This document shows positions 49,944 to 60,300 of a stretch of 64,000 bases of DNA, one piece after another. The position numbers and the translations under genes were made by a program. The notes beneath the pieces are model-generated. The model did no database searches, was not told the origin of the DNA, and saw only the letters and a list, made by a program, of their open reading frames with translations. Numbering within the stretch: position 1 is the first letter of the stretch; every line of letters starts with the position of its first letter. The stretch lies in the NCBI RefSeq assembly GCF_054482595.1, contig NZ_CM137008.1. One strand, given 5' to 3'.

Positions 49944-50632
49944 CGTTTTTCCCTTATAATTACAGACGCGCACTAGCTGTGCTGGGTTAGTAATAATCCA
50001 ACATTTTTATCCTGATTATGTTTATAAAAGCGAACGTTTGCTTAATAACTAACGTAAGTGGACCAGTTCTTCTAAGTGAACTTAAATGGAGTAGCAACAG
50101 TTAATTATAATAACGTTGCCATACAAACGCTATGCTCTTGCATGCTATGTACCTTTATATATTTATCAATCGGATACGAATCTAATAATAACCCTCATCA
50201 TTAATGCAACTAATCTTATCTATATATCATGTGATATGTTCTGTAACAAGTAAAATCAACATAAAAAATTCAGCAAAATTTAATATTCGTTCAACTAGCC
50301 GTCTCACATATGACATTATTAGTCAACTCCATTTGCCACAAAATGGCTATTTCATGGAGCGCAGTAATTTCTTAGTGGCTATTATCATGCTAATTCTTAG
50401 GTCCCTAGCGATTATTCCTGGCTGGTTCGTCAGCTTACGCCATGAGATTGTTACATTCCTTTTTATCCTGGAGATATGGGGGAACGCAGGAGATGATTTT
50501 TTCATCTACATTCGTTGGTAAATATAGCTTTGGTCACTACGTAGACTGGCCCCCTGAATCTCCAGACAACCAATATCACTTATTTAAGTGATAGTCTTAA
50601 TACTAGTTTTTAGACTAGTCATTGGAGAGCAG

Positions 50633-50998
50633 ATGATTGATGTCTTAGGACCGGAGAAACGCAGACGGCGTACTACACAGGAAAAGATCGCTATTGTTCA
50701 GCAGAGTTTTGAACCGGGAATGACAGTCTCCCTTGTTGCCCGGCAACACGGTGTGGCAGCCAGCCAGTTATTTCTCTGGCGCAAGCAATACCAGGAGGGA
50801 AGTCTTACTGCTGTGGCCGCAGGAGAACAGGTCGTTCCTGCCTCTGAACTTGCTGCCGCCATGAAGCAGATTAAAGAACTCCAGCGCCTGCTCGGCAAAA
50901 AAACGATGGAAAATGAACTCCTTAAAGAAGCCGTTGAATACGGGCGTGCAAAAAAGTGGATAGCGCACGCGCCCTTATTGCCCGGGGATGGGGAGTAA
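50633..50998 (+). CDS. insC: IS2 transposase OrfA (InsC), 121 aa
   Basis: [29 protein letters not shown]...; A-AAA-AAG slippery heptamer at 50950-50956 for programmed -1 frameshifting into orfB. Confidence 0.85.
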
Positions 50999-51861
50999 GC
51001 TTAGTCAGCCGTTGTCTCCGGGTGTCGCGTGCGCAGTTGCACGTCATTCTCAGACGAACCGATGACTGGAAAGATGGTCGCCGCAGCCGTCACTCAGATG
51101 ATACGGATGTGCTTCTCCGTATACACCATGTTATCGGAGAGCTGCCCACATATGGTTATCGTCGGGTATGGGCGCTGCTTCGCAGACAGGCCGAACTTGA
51201 TGGTATGCCTGCGATCAATGCCAAACGTATTTACCGGATCATGCGCCAGAATGCGCTGTTGCTTGAGCGAAAACCCGCTGTACCGCCATCGAAACGGGCA
51301 CATACCGGCAGAGTGGCTGTGAAAGAAAGTAATCAGCGATGGTGCTCTGACGGGTTCGAGTTCCGCTGTGATAACGGAGAAAAACTGCGAGTCACGTTCG
51401 CGCTGGACTGCTGTGACCGTGAGGCACTGCACTGGGCGGTCACTACGGGCGGCTTCAACAGTGAAACAGTACAGGACGTCATGCTGGGAGCGGTGGAACG
51501 CCGTTTCGGCAACGAGCTTCCGGCGTCTCCAGTAGAGTGGCTGACGGATAATGGTTCATGCTACCGGGCTAATGAAACACGGCAGTTTGCCCGGATGTTG
51601 GGGCTTGAACCGAAGAACACGGCGGTGCGGAGTCCGGAGAGTAACGGCATAGCAGAGAGCTTCGTGAAAACGATAAAGCGTGACTACATCAGTGTCATGC
51701 CCAAACCAGACGGGTTAACGGCAGCAAAGAACCTTGCAGAGGCATTCGAGCATTATAACGAATGGCATCCGCATAGTGCACTGGGTTATCGCTCGCCACG
51801 GGAATATCTACGGCAGCAAGCCAGTAATGGGTTAAGTGATAACAGGTGTCTGGAAATATAG
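50956..51861 (+). CDS. insD: IS2 transposase OrfB (InsD), DDE catalytic domain, 301 aa
   Basis: ORF-track ORF overlapping insC in the -1 frame; sequence recognised. Confidence 0.85.
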
Positions 51862-54640: not shown

Positions 54641-55621
54641 ATGGACGCAATAATATCGCCCGATTATTACTATGTTCTTACCGTTGCTGGTCAGTCTAAT
54701 GCCATGGCGTATGGCGAAGGACTGCCATTACCGGACAGGGAAGATGCGCCTCATCCCAGAATTAAACAATTAGCGAGATTTGCGCATACGCATCCCGGAG
54801 GCCCGTCATGTCACTTTAACGACATTATTCCACTGACTCACTGCCCACACGATGTTCAGGATATGCAGGGTTATCACCATCCTCTGGCAACGAATCATCA
54901 AACACAGTACGGCACCATTGGCCAGGCACTGCATATTGCACGGAAATTACTGCCCTTTATTCCTGATAACGCAGGGGTTCTCATCGTTCCATGTTGCCGT
55001 GGCGGATCGGCTTTTACCGCGGGCAGCGAGGGGACATATTCAGAACGGCACGGAGCCAGCCATGATGCTTGTCGTTGGGGAACGGATACTCCGCTATACC
55101 AGGATTTAGTCAGCAGAACGCGAGCCGCATTGGCAAAAAATCCGCAGAACAAATTCCTCGGCGTATGCTGGATGCAAGGCGAATTTGACTTAATGACCAG
55201 TGACTACGCGTCACACCCTCAACACTTTAATCATATGGTTGAAGCCTTTCGTAGGGATCTAAAACAATACCATTCTCAGCTTAATAATATTACTGATGCG
55301 CCCTGGTTCTGCGGCGATACCACCTGGTACTGGAAAGAAAATTTCCCTCATGCGTATGAAGCTATTTATGGCAATTATCAAAATAATATTTTAGCTAATA
55401 TTATTTTCGTCGACTTCCAGCAACAAGGTGCAAGAGGACTGACGAACGCGCCTGATGAAGATCCGGACGATTTAAGCACGGGATATTACGGTTCAGCGTA
55501 CCGGTCACCGGAGAACTGGACGACGGCACTGCGAAGCAGTCATTTCAGCGCGGCAGCCCGTCGGGGGATTATTTCTGACAAGTTTGTAGAAGCAATTTTG
55601 CAGTTTTGGCGCGAAAGGTGA
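54641..55621 (+). CDS. nanS: 9-O-acetyl-N-acetylneuraminate esterase NanS, 326 aa
   Basis: Sequence recognised (YjhS/NanS). Confidence 0.8.
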   Translation: MDAIISPDYYYVLTVAGQSNAMAYGEGLPLPDREDAPHPRIKQLARFAHTHPGGPSCHFNDIIPLTHCPHDVQDMQGYHHPLATNHQTQYGTIGQALHIARKLLPFIPDNAGVLIVPCCRGGSAFTAGSEGTYSERHGASHDACRWGTDTPLYQDLVSRTRAALAKNPQNKFLGVCWMQGEFDLMTSDYASHPQHFNHMVEAFRRDLKQYHSQLNNITDAPWFCGDTTWYWKENFPHAYEAIYGNYQNNILANIIFVDFQQQGARGLTNAPDEDPDDLSTGYYGSAYRSPENWTTALRSSHFSAAARRGIISDKFVEAILQFWRER

Positions 55622-55775
55622 GCGTTCATTAATTTGATTTATTCGCATCCATCAGCGCTTTTAACTCCTCCGGCGTAAACGGTGGTTTGCGTAGGTGCAA
55701 CATCGCATGGCAATTAGGGCACACAGGCAGCAAAAAAACAAATGAGATCAAAGTAATATATCTTCACTTGCAGGC

Positions 55776-56705
55776 TTGAACAGCAGAAAATTTGCGAGCA
55801 TGATCGCAATTATTTCACTGCCAGGGATATCAATGGCTTCCAGTAAATCGCTACAGCAGGCAATTGCCAATATAAAAATCTGGCATAAGGGTGAACAGCG
55901 CGCACCGCATAAACCATTGTTATTGCTATACGTATTAGCGGGATACCTGAATGGACATCCACGCCTTTTCGATTATGGATCGGAAATCTACGAACCTCTG
56001 CACAGTTTACTGGAACGTTTTGGGCCACAGCGTTCACAGTACCGACCTGATATGCCGTTCTGGCGATTACAAGGCGACGGATTCTGGCAATTACACAATG
56101 CCGAGCTTTGCTCAACAGCAGGGAGCAGCCGACAACCGCCAGTGAAGGAACTGAACGAATACCACGTTGCAGGCGGTTTCGATGAACAGCACTACGCCTT
56201 GGTAACCGGCAATAAAAAACTCATCAATACTCTGGCGCAACAGATACTCGAAGCGCACTTCACCGAGAGTATTCAGGAAGAAATTGCTGACGAGCTGGGT
56301 TTTGATCTCCAGCAAATCCGTAAACAGTGCGACCCGTTATTTCGCAAAAATGTATTACGCGCTTATAAATACCAGTGCGCGATATGTGGCTTTAATATGC
56401 GCCACGACGACACCACCGTCGCGCTGGAAGCGGCGCATATAAAATGGAAACAGCACGGCGGTCCTTGTGAAATTCCTAATGGCCTGGCGCTTTGCGCAAT
56501 TCACCATAAAGCCTTTGATAAAGGATCGATTGGCCTGGACGAAAATATGCGGGTACTGGTATCAGATGCGGTAAACGGCGGAGGGATCGTTGAGAGATTA
56601 TTCTGGGATTTTGACGGGAAAACTATTGCGTTGCCGCAGGTGCGTAAAAATTACCCTTATGAGGTGTTTGTAGAGTGGCATCGGAAAGAGGTTTTTAGGG
56701 GGTGA
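55776..56705 (+). CDS. HNH endonuclease with an N-terminal putative modified-DNA reader domain; candidate Type IV restriction enzyme, 309 aa
   Basis: C-terminal HNH motif CAICGF ... LEAAHIKWKQHGGPCEIPNGLALCAIHHKAFDKG. The N-terminal domain (APHKPLLLLYVL ... MPFWRLQGDGFWQL) has no catalytic motif recognised. An alternative start is the ATG at 55833. Confidence 0.6.
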   Translation: MNSRKFASMIAIISLPGISMASSKSLQQAIANIKIWHKGEQRAPHKPLLLLYVLAGYLNGHPRLFDYGSEIYEPLHSLLERFGPQRSQYRPDMPFWRLQGDGFWQLHNAELCSTAGSSRQPPVKELNEYHVAGGFDEQHYALVTGNKKLINTLAQQILEAHFTESIQEEIADELGFDLQQIRKQCDPLFRKNVLRAYKYQCAICGFNMRHDDTTVALEAAHIKWKQHGGPCEIPNGLALCAIHHKAFDKGSIGLDENMRVLVSDAVNGGGIVERLFWDFDGKTIALPQVRKNYPYEVFVEWHRKEVFRG

Positions 56706-57017
56706 GGTAGCCATTATATATCTTTCACCTAGGATTTTAAATGTAATAGATAAAGTATTTTCTGACACCGAAAGTAGTATTTATGAGTACATAGCCACAA
56801 ATCAATTTTAAAATCTCAATATAAAATACGTTTACAAATATTCTAGTCAGAGTAAATATATATTCATTATAAGAGAATCCAATTATTAACCAATCGAAAT
56901 TACAAATTAAAAAACAATTGGCATGTTGAATTGTACACTAATTTATATACATAGTAAATTTACATCTATTCATGATATAATTATCGTGATATCAATTCAT
57001 TAATCAGGAAAATCATA

Positions 57018-57320
57018 ATGGAATTGTTAAATACTTATGATGATAAAGAAACAGCTGAAATATTTTTTGAAAAAATAGACGGAGAGAAAAGATTAGCAAG
57101 TGAGAGAGATGCTACAGAAACAGTCTATAACCTCTTCGGGCAACCAACATGGAAAAACTTTTATCTTCTTGATATGTTTAACCTAAAAGAGTTACAAGGG
57201 ATTATAGAGTGTAGAAAAAATGGACAGCCGTTCGACCAGGAACGACACAGGGAAATAATAAAAATGCTTGAATATGCAGCAAAATCGTTTGACCTAATTA
57301 TTCCTGCACATTGGCGATAA
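57018..57320 (+). CDS. Hypothetical protein, 100 aa, AT-rich, convergent with the Res-like gene
   Basis: ORF-track ORF preceded by aggaaaatcata; no family recognised. Confidence 0.35.
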   Translation: MELLNTYDDKETAEIFFEKIDGEKRLASERDATETVYNLFGQPTWKNFYLLDMFNLKELQGIIECRKNGQPFDQERHREIIKMLEYAAKSFDLIIPAHWR

Positions 57321-57322
57321 TA

Positions 57323-57355
57323 TCTGTTCCATATCTCACAGAGATATGGAACAGA
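57323..57355. terminator. Bidirectional hairpin between the 100-aa ORF and the Res-like gene
   Basis: tctgttccatatctc-acag-agatatggaacaga read directly. Confidence 0.55.
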
Positions 57356-57366
57356 ATCATAATTAT

Positions 57367-60300
57367 TTACTCGCTAACCATCTTACTGAATAACTTCTCC
57401 AGATAAACGGGGCCTGTATCCTCAATAAAAAGCACATTTCTGGCTTCCAGATTTTCTTTTGAGTCAGGTACGTTTACTAAGTCAACATAACAAGTTTCAG
57501 AAACAATAAATGCACTTAATGATAAGTTATCATCCGATAATTTATGTTCAAGATTCTTAATTTCTTTATATAATCCGAACTTCGGATCATCAAGATTAAG
57601 ATTGCGAATGCCTTTTGGATCAATAAGACTTAGCCATTGTTTACCACTTTTATCATCGACTAACCACAATAAGAAATCCGGATAAAAATTACCCGCAGTA
57701 GCAAAGCCCAGGCCTTTATTTTTAGAATCCGCATTTCTTAGCAGATATAAACTTTTATCACCAATAATTTTCTGCCCTTTTGTCGAATCAACAAAAGACT
57801 GAAGATCCTGAACAAAAGTAATCTCGCTTGGCGCACCAAGTGCTGCCGGTCGCATTTTTAGCGGTATATTGGCATTTTTTTCAATCGAAAGAAGCGGGTA
57901 ATAGAGATGTTTATCAAAGGTAATAGCAACCATCCCGGATGCACTCCAGGATTTTGCTTTACCGATTTCGCCGTCGATGACCAATTGTTGTAATTGTTCC
58001 AGCCGACTGGCATAAGCCAACCCATCATCAGTTTCTTCGATCTCGAAATGGTACATTTTGATCATACCAGGATCATCTTCTTTCACCTGCGTGACTTCAT
58101 AAAACTGACCTTCATAAGCATTTTTCAAGGTGTTGTAAAAGCGATCAGTATAATCAGTCAGCAGACGAAGCATAATATCTTCCTGCTTAGCAATATCTGC
58201 ATATTGCTTAATCTCAAGCTCTGAAGCTGGAATCAAAAGGGTATACCAACTATTTCCGATCTTTGTCTTACCGGTACAAAAGTCGATCAAACGTTGTTTA
58301 TCCACACGTAAATTTGACCAGCCGCGTTGTAGTTTATAATTCTGAATGGCGAGATAAAGCCGATCAAAATCAAATGCACTAATGATTTTATAATCTAACT
58401 TCGCTTCATTGCGCACGTTAACCGGAGTATTGTCCCCTTTTCTGCTGGTATCAATCGACTCAAGTTTCGGGTATAAGTCCAGCTTAATATGCGGCTGCTT
58501 AATTTTCCCCTGAAAATCAGCAGGAACTTCATACAATTCAGGAAAATAGACACGTTTAAAGCCGAGTCTTTGATTATCTTTATAACCATCTTTAAGCTTA
58601 AGTGTTTTAAGCCTGGTTGCTGGCATATTTGGCCGAGTTTCAAAATTCAGCTCAAGGATCTCGTCACTTGGCGTAATCCCTTCATCTTCCAGGTATTGTT
58701 TAAAGGTTGCCATGTAATCGGCACGTACACCGAATACATTCAGTGTCTCTAATTTTTCCAGATGCAACCCTTTCGGACGCTCACCGGGTGTACTGCGTTT
58801 CAAAGAATAATTGCGACCTTTAAGGCGTACGCCACGACCAAATAACTGAATGATCTGTGAACCTTCTCCACGGCCCATATTGAGCAATCCCATCGTTGAG
58901 ACGCGCCAACTGCTCCAGCCTTCAGTAAATTTTCGCGAGCCGATCAAAATATGTAGTCGCGAGTCTTTGTCATTTAACGTATGAAAGAGTGACTTTGCAA
59001 AATCATCTCTCTGATAATCAAATGTCGTATCCTCTTCACACATTTTGTAAAGAGACGGTGCATCACCAATATTGATAAGGCCAAACGGTTCGGCCTCACC
59101 AACCTGTAATGCCAGTTCACCTTTACTGCCTATTAAATTCAGAACTCGCAGTCGCTGACCAGAGTGAGTGGTGTTAAACAAGCGAGAAAGAATATCTGCG
59201 TAGATATCTTCCGGAGCGTTCATTAGTGCAGTAAAGCGATTTTCAAAAATGTTACGCTCTTTGGTATCGAGGATTCGCGCTTTATTTTTAATGAGATCGT
59301 TAATCCACGCTTTTGCCTGCGTTTCGTGGTTTAAAAACCATGCTAAAAAACGCAATACTGCGTGAATGTCTGAATCTTCACCACTTACCGTATTACCGAC
59401 AAAAACCCACAGCGGTTTTTCGATATTAAATTCACTTAATTTTTCTTTATTCTTATTGAATAAATATTGTTGCTGATAAAAGCTGAGCAAACACGCGGTA
59501 AAATACTCATACCGACGCTCATCTTTTTTATCCTCTTCAGGATTAAGGTTAAGAATCAGTGATTCTTTACCATAACCATCCTCATAGAAGAATTTATAGG
59601 AGTAATCGAACAGAATCGATTTTCCATAGACCTCTCGCGTCGCCTGAATACGCGCATCTCGTTTTTCTTCGCTGGTTAATGCTATTTGCGCTAACTCTTC
59701 TTCGTTCAGTTTACCTAAGGCCGTTGTTTCAAAAAGCAGCTTTGCTTTTTTCTTCTGAATTTCTGTTTCAACTGCCTCAACATTATTGCCACCGGCTACT
59801 GCCTGGCCAAAAGTTGCTGAATATTCAAACGCAAATCCGTCACGTGTTAATTTGTCACGACGGCGCATCCAGGCACCAGCAGCACTTCCGGTGCCTTTAT
59901 GCCCTTCATCAATCAGAACCAGATTGTTGCCTTCAAATGCCTCAACGGCAACAGTTTTGTCACCCATTTCATCGGCAAGTTTATTGATATCAATAACTTC
60001 AATCGTGCCTTTGAAGGGCGCAGATTTACTCTTATCGAATAACTGGTATTGGGTAAATCCTGAGTTTTCCAGCTCATCTAAATGTTGCTTCGACAGGCGT
60101 TCATCCGGAGTAAGCAGGATGATTTTGTCGGGGTAATGGTGGGTATTACCGTTCTGGAAATAATGTAAGTATTGCAAAATATTGACATGCAATAGCAGTG
60201 TCTTACCAGAACCAGTAGCATTCCAGTATGCCAGTTTATTCAAATCATCCAGAATATATGATTTGAACTGATTAGCCCGGTCTTTTGCTGTTTTATCATT

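Follow-up and report, generated by a model that had tools for sequence, protein, structure and literature searches.

What is a gene of 100 codons doing at the 3′ end of a large restriction operon, converging on it, in the chromosome of Escherichia coli? The question is raised by positions 57018-57320 of a 64,000-nucleotide stretch of contig NZ_CM137008.1 (RefSeq assembly GCF_054482595.1), which we call the window. The gene, referred to here as the small gene, converges on a Res-like gene, the last of a Type III-like restriction cassette consisting of an SNF2 helicase, a Mod-like methyltransferase and the Res-like helicase-nuclease. We find that the small gene is the 3′ edge marker of a slot for methylation-type defence cassettes in mobile islands. 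The best reading of its product, to which we assign a probability of about 45%, is that of a free-standing, trans-acting small protein that marks this edge.

The small gene is a genuine protein-coding gene that stands alone, with its own ribosome-binding site and an AT-rich 5′ spacer (Table 1). RefSeq annotates the identical coding sequence in E. coli chromosomes as hypothetical protein WP_000421875. The G+C (GC) content of the open reading frame (ORF) is 34.7%; stop codons make up ~7% of random triplets at this composition, so that 100 open codons have a chance probability of ~6e-4 per start. A preliminary description made from the sequence had proposed a small, AT-rich ORF of 100 codons convergent with the Res-like gene, and this is confirmed by the ORF, its composition and the RefSeq annotation. 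The promoter presumably lies within the 312-bp spacer, in which the sole promoter-like match on the plus strand is located at 56959-56987 (TTTACA-17-TATCGT, 9/12); the 6 matches returned by the promoter scan are not in excess of the 5.3 expected from shuffled sequences.

A single-sequence search of 5.8 billion proteins retrieved 115 clusters of relatives, nearly all exactly 100 amino acids long and 50-70% identical, from genera including Aeromonas, Vibrio, Shewanella, Pseudoalteromonas, Klebsiella, Salmonella and Marinomonas. A profile search extended this to 228 clusters, all of the same family, and the family is compact, since an exhaustive search of 1.84 billion representatives (50% identity) found only 65. 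It ranges over the Gammaproteobacteria plus a few Betaproteobacteria. The family alignment shows no internal indels, invariant residues L39, W45, L51, L56, P96 and W99, and three conserved motifs: KRLASERD, YNLFGxPTWxNFY and a C-terminal IPxHW. Longer “fusion” members, e.g., P0184 with residues matching RadC in Pfam, were rejected as read-through or over-extended gene calls. The isoelectric point (pI) has a family median of 5.7 and a maximum of 8.0. The family is unnamed, so far unannotated and new. A divergent subfamily (27-29% identity; L022 7655-8026 and L024 1858-2172, where L numbers denote individual loci) lacks the KRLASERD motif and carries PxEW at its C-terminus.

The protein is under purifying selection, with a median pairwise ratio of nonsynonymous to synonymous substitution rates (dN/dS) of 0.115 in 116 pairs. 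Synonymous codon identity is even along the gene (0.36-0.46), and the GC content of the small gene follows that of the host, from 33 to 66%. Because synonymous variation is flat and GC content tracks the host, the constraint must act on the protein rather than on a site in the DNA; the same flat synonymous-site variation led us to reject an att or recombination site within the ORF. Both the frame and the length of 100 amino acids are kept across orders of the Gammaproteobacteria. The reading frame is thus conserved, as the preliminary description had asked of a real gene, and with this conservation and the low dN/dS its suggestion that the gene might be simply an orphan has to be dropped.

Next to which genes does the family reside? 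A scan of GTDB with one genome per species yielded 78 loci, mostly from Pseudomonas, Vibrionales, Alteromonadales and Enterobacterales, with one Burkholderiales metagenome-assembled genome (MAG). ORFs in these loci are crude longest non-overlapping calls that were clustered by BLAST, with PADLOC and Pfam labels placed on the cluster representatives. The flanks comprise at most 10 kb, so that the far ends of most cassettes lie outside the view, and the loci share ancestry, so the following counts are descriptive and should not be taken as independent trials. Convergent orientation of the next gene was seen in 60 of 70 loci, at a median gap of 35 bp, with 47 loci showing a gap of 70 bp or less. 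By PADLOC, 47 of 74 loci could be assigned to six cassette types: Type III-like Res, Mod and SNF2 as in the window (11 loci), BREX type 3 with BrxC, PglXI, BrxHII, PglZ and BrxA (12), Hma, also recognizable as DUF499-DUF1156 (9), BREX type 1 with PglX, PglZ and BrxL (6), a second kind of Type III-like system with SNF2 (6) and PLD-helicase systems (3). Hma lies upstream of the small gene and in the same direction in two further loci. Among the 27 loci left untyped, the commonest PADLOC matches among the first three downstream ORFs are type II methyltransferase models. The link to a restriction-type operon, whose conservation the preliminary description had proposed to check, is therefore kept and is broader than expected, the convergent neighbor being mostly the last gene of a Type III-like, BREX-1, BREX-3 or Hma operon, with type II restriction-modification or McrBC plus methyltransferase units in smaller numbers.

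Exact-protein look-ups gave the same picture for individual genomes. In Aeromonas, the order is RadC, CbeA and the small gene, followed by convergent DUF499, DUF4276, AAA_15 and DUF1156 genes (Hma). Vibrio parahaemolyticus carries int, AlpA and the small gene, then convergent PglZ, SNF2 and methyltransferase genes (BREX-3), and Marinomonas int, a helix-turn-helix (HTH) gene and the small gene, then convergent S_4TM/SMODS genes and a DUF499 system. Co-directional cargo is found in Klebsiella aerogenes, where an HNH gene and the small gene precede an McrBC-like pair plus a methyltransferase, and in Salmonella, where the small gene is followed by a methyltransferase and a BglI/SfiI-like endonuclease, i.e., a type II restriction-modification (RM) system. 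The leuX island of E. coli strain A29 adds a further arrangement (Table 1), and on a small MobQ plasmid of P. aeruginosa the small gene lies beside the remnant of a BglII-family endonuclease.

Several Hma cassettes contain or adjoin other defence genes (L032, L046, L049, L052, L054, L056 and L038), namely Septu PtuA/PtuB, PsyrTA or SMODS with S_4TM; DUF4276/AAA_15 genes are likewise found inside some Hma cassettes. A matching observation has been published for Halomonas, with an insertion hotspot inside hma (PMC11232893).

On the upstream side, the nearest ORF in 66 loci is a P4-type integrase in nine, RadC in five, NERD in five (three with a kinase domain), Gp3-like in three and DUF932 in two, the others being diverse. 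In at least seven loci, a tRNA-Leu, tRNA-Val or tmRNA gene is followed by int, the small gene and cargo; elsewhere the small gene is the last of a DUF932-YqaJ-Gp3like-RadC module, and in one context it adjoins a TraI_2 relaxase. Among ~700 E. coli genomes with an integrase ~89% DNA-identical to that of strain A29, the small gene follows the integrase in only 10; homology of these ~700 genomes to the A29 leuX island stops in the last ~50 bp of int. Moreover, relative to the RadC-CbeA module, the pair of small gene and cassette is oriented one way in Aeromonas and the other way in E. coli. Given the diversity of upstream genes and the many A29-like integrases without it, the small gene is not tied to one island backbone.

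If the small gene is not owned by one backbone, does it belong to the cassette? The Res protein of E. coli is 83-85% identical to Res of Shewanella, Arsukibacterium and Rheinheimera (L029, L034, L042, L055), whereas the small proteins are 61% identical; in locus L027, which encodes the most similar small protein (67%), Res is just 63% identical. DNA homology between the window and the Shewanella, Arsukibacterium and Rheinheimera loci stops at the Res stop codon. This gap in identity reflects either several-fold faster evolution of the small protein or separate histories of cassette and gene. On whether the gene is owned by the island or by the cassette, the evidence is divided: these identities speak for a resident gene next to which cargo is exchanged, and the A29-like integrases, the two orientations and the bias of the cargo to methyltransferase-based systems speak for linkage to the cassette. 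Full-length SNF2-Mod-Res cassettes (63% amino acid identity) also reside on at least 13 plasmids of Klebsiella, E. coli, Raoultella and Citrobacter, none of which is among the seven plasmids encoding the small protein. The plasmid cassette consists of four genes, encoding a small HTH protein, SNF2, the methyltransferase and Res. Directly after Res, an insertion sequence (IS) element is present both on E. coli plasmid pEC316_2 (IncFIB/IncFII; 63% identity) and on pE31A of Aeromonas media (62% identity), the latter carrying in addition an AAA+DUF4276 pair inserted between the methyltransferase and Res.

Within E. coli, the small gene or a remnant of it is present in 375 of 5426 complete genomes and is full length in 192. 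The 3′ region of Res is found in 189 genomes, essentially the same set as those with an intact small gene. In ~183 genomes the ORF is interrupted by IS66 (Table 1), and these genomes are without the Res/Mod operon at this site; the interruption looks like a single ancestral event that has spread clonally. The IS66 remnant is annotated as a 55-amino-acid hypothetical protein (WP_000421877; L002 8319-8486). In one E. coli strain, IS1 takes the place of the operon and the small gene is still intact. A copy 100% identical to the E. coli small gene on a contig assigned to an “uncultured Streptococcus sp.” (L026, MAG UMGS1794) most likely stems from contamination of the bin with E. coli.

Absence of the ORF from otherwise comparable islands, which the preliminary description had held would count against its proposals, is thus found in part, namely as plasmid SNF2-Mod-Res cassettes without the ORF and as the ~183 E. 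coli genomes truncated by IS66. Because of these two groups, the small gene is not an obligatory part of the operon. Searches of Pfam, PADLOC and NCBIfam with the small protein gave no Res or Mod match and hence no Type III RM component by homology. The small protein does not form a subunit of the Type III-like restriction enzyme, and cassettes exist that do without it.

Since the preliminary description had proposed homology and structure prediction as checks, we note that homologues are abundant and that the AlphaFold2 model built from the family alignment is confident (predicted local distance difference test score 95.5, predicted template modeling score 0.83). The predicted order of elements is a strand, a helix, two strands, three helices and the C-terminal IPxHW tail. 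No known structural relative was obtained: Foldseek against the PDB and viral models (BFVD) gave no relative, with E > 0.1, and the best hit of a sequence-profile search of the PDB was weak FF-domain noise (E = 0.037). The small protein had no significant match in Pfam, NCBIfam, PADLOC or PHROGs. A Pfam scan detected neither an HTH nor a WYL domain, and no HTH protein was among the neighbors of the model. No sequence or fold similarity to ArdA, ArdB/KlcA, Ocr or C-proteins was found. An accessory regulator or anti-restriction-type factor, as the preliminary description had suggested, is neither supported nor contradicted by these results. A phage origin was rejected, since INPHARED (50,697 phage records) contained no match and IMG/VR only two contigs. 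In the literature, we found no paper citing the accessions, and the searched passages of papers on BREX diversity, Hma and Pseudomonas hotspots do not mention the small gene.

How could such a protein act? According to the reading that we favor, it would work in trans through a conserved surface formed by the KRLASERD strand, YNLFGxPTW and IPxHW, on a partner independent of the type of cargo. That such a partner is common to all contexts is suggested, if weakly, by a polar surface that stays invariant whatever the cargo. The protein would temper or escape restriction during a methylation mismatch, e.g., upon arrival of an island with its cassette in a new host. This role is likewise weakly suggested by the company of the gene, which is flanked by RM-type cassettes and, at its opposite side, by establishment-type genes (RadC, DUF932, CbeA, relaxases, integrases). 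In its most specific form, the small protein, with its new fold, would be a type-independent establishment or anti-restriction factor that accompanies BREX-1, BREX-3, Hma/DUF499, Type III-like plus SNF2 and other RM cassettes and transiently blunts restriction by the neighboring cassette or by the recipient's own systems in an unmethylated host, which we regard as unlikely.

Several observations weigh against an active protein at the slot edge. Close alleles occur beside cargo of different kinds: between position -289 and the stop codon, L042 and L030 share 92% identity, and they then continue into Type III-like and BREX-3 cargo, respectively, and L037 and L043 are 87% identical within the ORF only, with BREX-3 and PLD-helicase cargo. 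The protein tree follows host clades, with a Pseudomonas clade apart and cassette types intermixed. The divergent subfamily occupies the 5′ end of an MmeI/Eco57I-like RM operon with a T5orf172+ResIII protein, in divergent orientation; a regulator would be expected there, whereas the main family lies convergently at the 3′ end. The pI of the window protein (5.0, below the family median) is mildly acidic, not that of a strong DNA mimic. Finally, the gene calls are mechanical, the loci are phylogenetically non-independent, and we infer the restriction-alleviation or anti-restriction role from genomic position only.

Because cargo is swapped beside close alleles and the tree tracks hosts, a passive gene at the slot edge, i.e., a hotspot boundary gene, fits these data as well as an active partner does. 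Such a gene would be owned by the island, have an island-related or unrelated function and merely mark the point of cargo exchange, the class of cargo being what circulates. We consider this possible, if doubtful. Both pairs of loci indeed show what is expected of a hotspot boundary, a conserved gene with cargo immediately beside it that changes from one close allele to another, and homology ending at the stop codon; constant association with one island backbone, also expected of such a boundary, is not seen. The position of the small gene as the first gene after a tRNA- or tmRNA-site integrase in at least seven loci, or as the last of the DUF932-YqaJ-Gp3like-RadC module in others, agrees with an island gene, as does the resemblance of L077 and L081 to a Pseudomonas hotspot with Ser/Thr kinase and YqaJ borders and Hma cargo, described in PMC12629846. 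If the gene were merely part of the island border, however, its upstream context should not be far more variable than its downstream context, the ~89% identical integrases of ~700 E. coli genomes should not be without it, and the gene-plus-cassette pair should not occur in both orientations relative to RadC-CbeA. The cargo is strongly skewed towards methyltransferase-based systems, unlike the mixed cargo of published hotspots, and a strongly selected protein would be left without a role.

Alternatively, the small protein could be an accessory dedicated to BREX-related and other systems combining SNF2 with a methyltransferase, serving as a regulator, sensor or safety factor and as the 3′ counterpart of 5′ BrxR/WYL regulators. 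This would agree with the presence of SNF2 helicases of a single BLAST cluster downstream in 29 loci, spanning Type III-like, BREX-3 and Hma cassettes (the cluster representative matches the PADLOC models BrxHI/BrxHII, HmaA and DrmD), with WYL-domain genes at the far (5′) end of several cassettes, and with the common helicase and methyltransferase ancestry of BREX-3 and DUF499/Hma systems reported in PMC12839542. Within the Hma class, the identities of small protein and DUF499 are correlated (Spearman 0.66); for the Type III-like and BREX-3 classes the correlation with cargo is weak (0.38-0.40), in line with the discrepancy between Res and small protein described above. Since the gene also occurs beside BREX-1, type II RM and McrBC systems without an SNF2 helicase, plasmid cassettes do without it and no DNA-binding domain is detectable, we regard a dedicated accessory as quite unlikely. 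A spurious ORF, a decaying remnant or a small gene of the toxin/antitoxin or excisionase type is largely refuted and very improbable, although the gene follows a CbeA-family antitoxin gene in Aeromonas and integrases in several loci and is dispensable in many E. coli strains. The first two are contradicted by purifying selection and conserved length. A CbtA-like toxin or DUF5983 relative was rejected because hhalign gave a probability of ≤0.4% (0.1% for CbtA), Pfam CbtA_toxin did not match and most loci lack an adjacent CbeA. Against an excisionase or recombination directionality factor speak the acidic pI, the absence of AlpA, Xis or HTH_17 matches in Pfam, the separate AlpA already beside the gene in Vibrio and the presence of an adjacent integrase in only 9 of 66 loci.

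The convergent gap itself was also considered. The stop codons of the small gene and the Res-like gene are 46 bp apart, and a perfect inverted repeat nearly fills this gap (Table 1). The palindrome folds with -26.4 kcal/mol (z = -7.2 relative to shuffled sequences). Of the bidirectional terminator hairpin previously suggested for this gap, the hairpin stands, with its perfect repeat and stable fold; the role as a terminator is plausible but not shown, as no T/U tract accompanies the palindrome on either strand and the terminator scan made no call there. Positioned between convergent genes, the palindrome would act as a shared bidirectional terminator or insulator. An attC-like conserved hairpin was rejected, since equivalent gaps at other loci contain unrelated hairpins where they are long enough and some are just 4-13 bp.

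Table 1. Features of the small-gene locus (window coordinates unless a locus is given)
Feature	Position	Strand	Evidence and remarks
IS3-family element	50588-51861		Overlapping transposase ORFs of 136 and 301 amino acids; upstream of nanC
C-terminal fragment of another HNH gene	55629-55751	-	Adjoins nanS
Phosphorothioate-DNA-dependent SBD-HNH restriction endonuclease, intact	55833-56705	+	NCBIfam NF045808, 433 bits; RefSeq annotation
Spacer, 312 bp	56706-57017	+	~22% GC; between the endonuclease gene and the small gene
Shine-Dalgarno-like AGGA	57006-57009	+	8 nt before ATG; read from sequence
Small gene, 100 amino acids (12.0 kDa, pI 5.0)	57018-57320	+	ATG, 100 codons, TAA; conserved family without annotation
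IS66 breakpoint in ~183 E. coli genomes	57140-57141		Homology ends; ORF cut after ~codon 41
Perfect 15-bp inverted repeat, 3-nt loop	57323-57337 / 57341-57355		Palindrome 57323-57355
Res-like helicase-nuclease, 1126 amino acids	57367-60747	-	PADLOC REase_III, 2326 bits; Pfam ResIII/DEAD; last cassette gene
Mod-like N6-adenine DNA methyltransferase, 1044 amino acids	60750-63884	-	PADLOC MTase_III, 1652 bits; Pfam N6_N4_Mtase
leuX island of E. coli A29	L106 13390-24528		tRNA-Leu, int, small gene, McrBC-like pair, methyltransferase, Gabija (GajA/GajB)

The window is a segment of the E. coli chromosome in which nanC-nanM-nanS, the HNH-gene fragment and the SBD-HNH endonuclease gene lead up to the small gene. 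This endonuclease gene, co-directional with the small gene, is a defence gene in its own right. HNH or SBD-HNH genes are also found near the small gene in the Klebsiella aerogenes and Salmonella loci (L010, L016-L018). The SNF2 helicase gene lies past the window end, in a region read in locus L001 (16051-22085); its best PADLOC match is DrmD of DISARM (663 bits), followed by BrxHI/BrxHII and HmaA. Farther past SNF2 are the CP4-type island genes DUF957, DUF5983, CbtA, YeeU and YeeT. As a Type III-like system, the cassette is unusual in its oversized Mod and Res proteins and in the SNF2 helicase upstream of them. At about the position of the IS3 element of the window, IS1 and a truncated fim operon are present in the reference strains examined. 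A search of 55000-58500 for structured RNAs with Rfam gave one chance snoRNA match only.

The consequences depend on which reading holds. If the association is functional, the family represents a new group of accessory or anti-restriction proteins for some of the least understood defence systems (BREX, Hma and BREX-related systems, SNF2-linked Type III-like RM), and it bears on how naive hosts survive the arrival of restriction systems carried by mobile islands. Should the gene mark the slot edge only, it still provides a short, easily recognized signature of 100 amino acids by which defence cassettes in gammaproteobacterial islands can be found and delimited and their exchange followed. Either way, a family name is due in place of thousands of “hypothetical protein” labels. 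The genomic habit of the family is distinctive and, it appears, undescribed.

Four groups of known systems invite comparison. ArdA, ArdB/KlcA, Ocr and Ral/Lar are small anti-restriction or restriction-alleviation proteins of mobile elements. The small protein resembles them in size, in its mobile location near establishment-type genes (RadC, DUF932, CbeA, relaxase) and in its association with restriction systems; it differs in showing no similarity to any entry of Pfam, PDB or BFVD, in being mildly acidic and in its absence from the phage records searched. The C-proteins of type II RM systems form HTH dimers, and their genes precede the endonuclease gene, with which they are co-transcribed. 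Like them, the small protein is small, is encoded beside RM genes and could time restriction after transfer. Unlike them, it has no HTH, is encoded by a gene convergent at the 3′ end of the operon, both here and in the 60 of 70 loci, and accompanies many system types.

BrxR/WYL regulators co-localize with diverse defence systems. They share with the small gene the habit of a conserved stand-alone accessory gene beside many unrelated defence operons (BREX, RM-like). In contrast to these regulators, the small protein lacks HTH and WYL domains and resembles them in neither sequence nor fold, and its gene is 3′ convergent instead of upstream of the operon. The boundary genes of the Pseudomonas GI-Hotspots form the fourth group. 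The small gene is not among the boundaries named in PMC12629846 (kinase, YqaJ, tra genes), resides on several unrelated backbones and shows methyltransferase-biased cargo. With these hotspots, it shares the conserved flank of a slot with varying cargo, the hosts Pseudomonas and Aeromonas, and Hma and RM systems as cargo.

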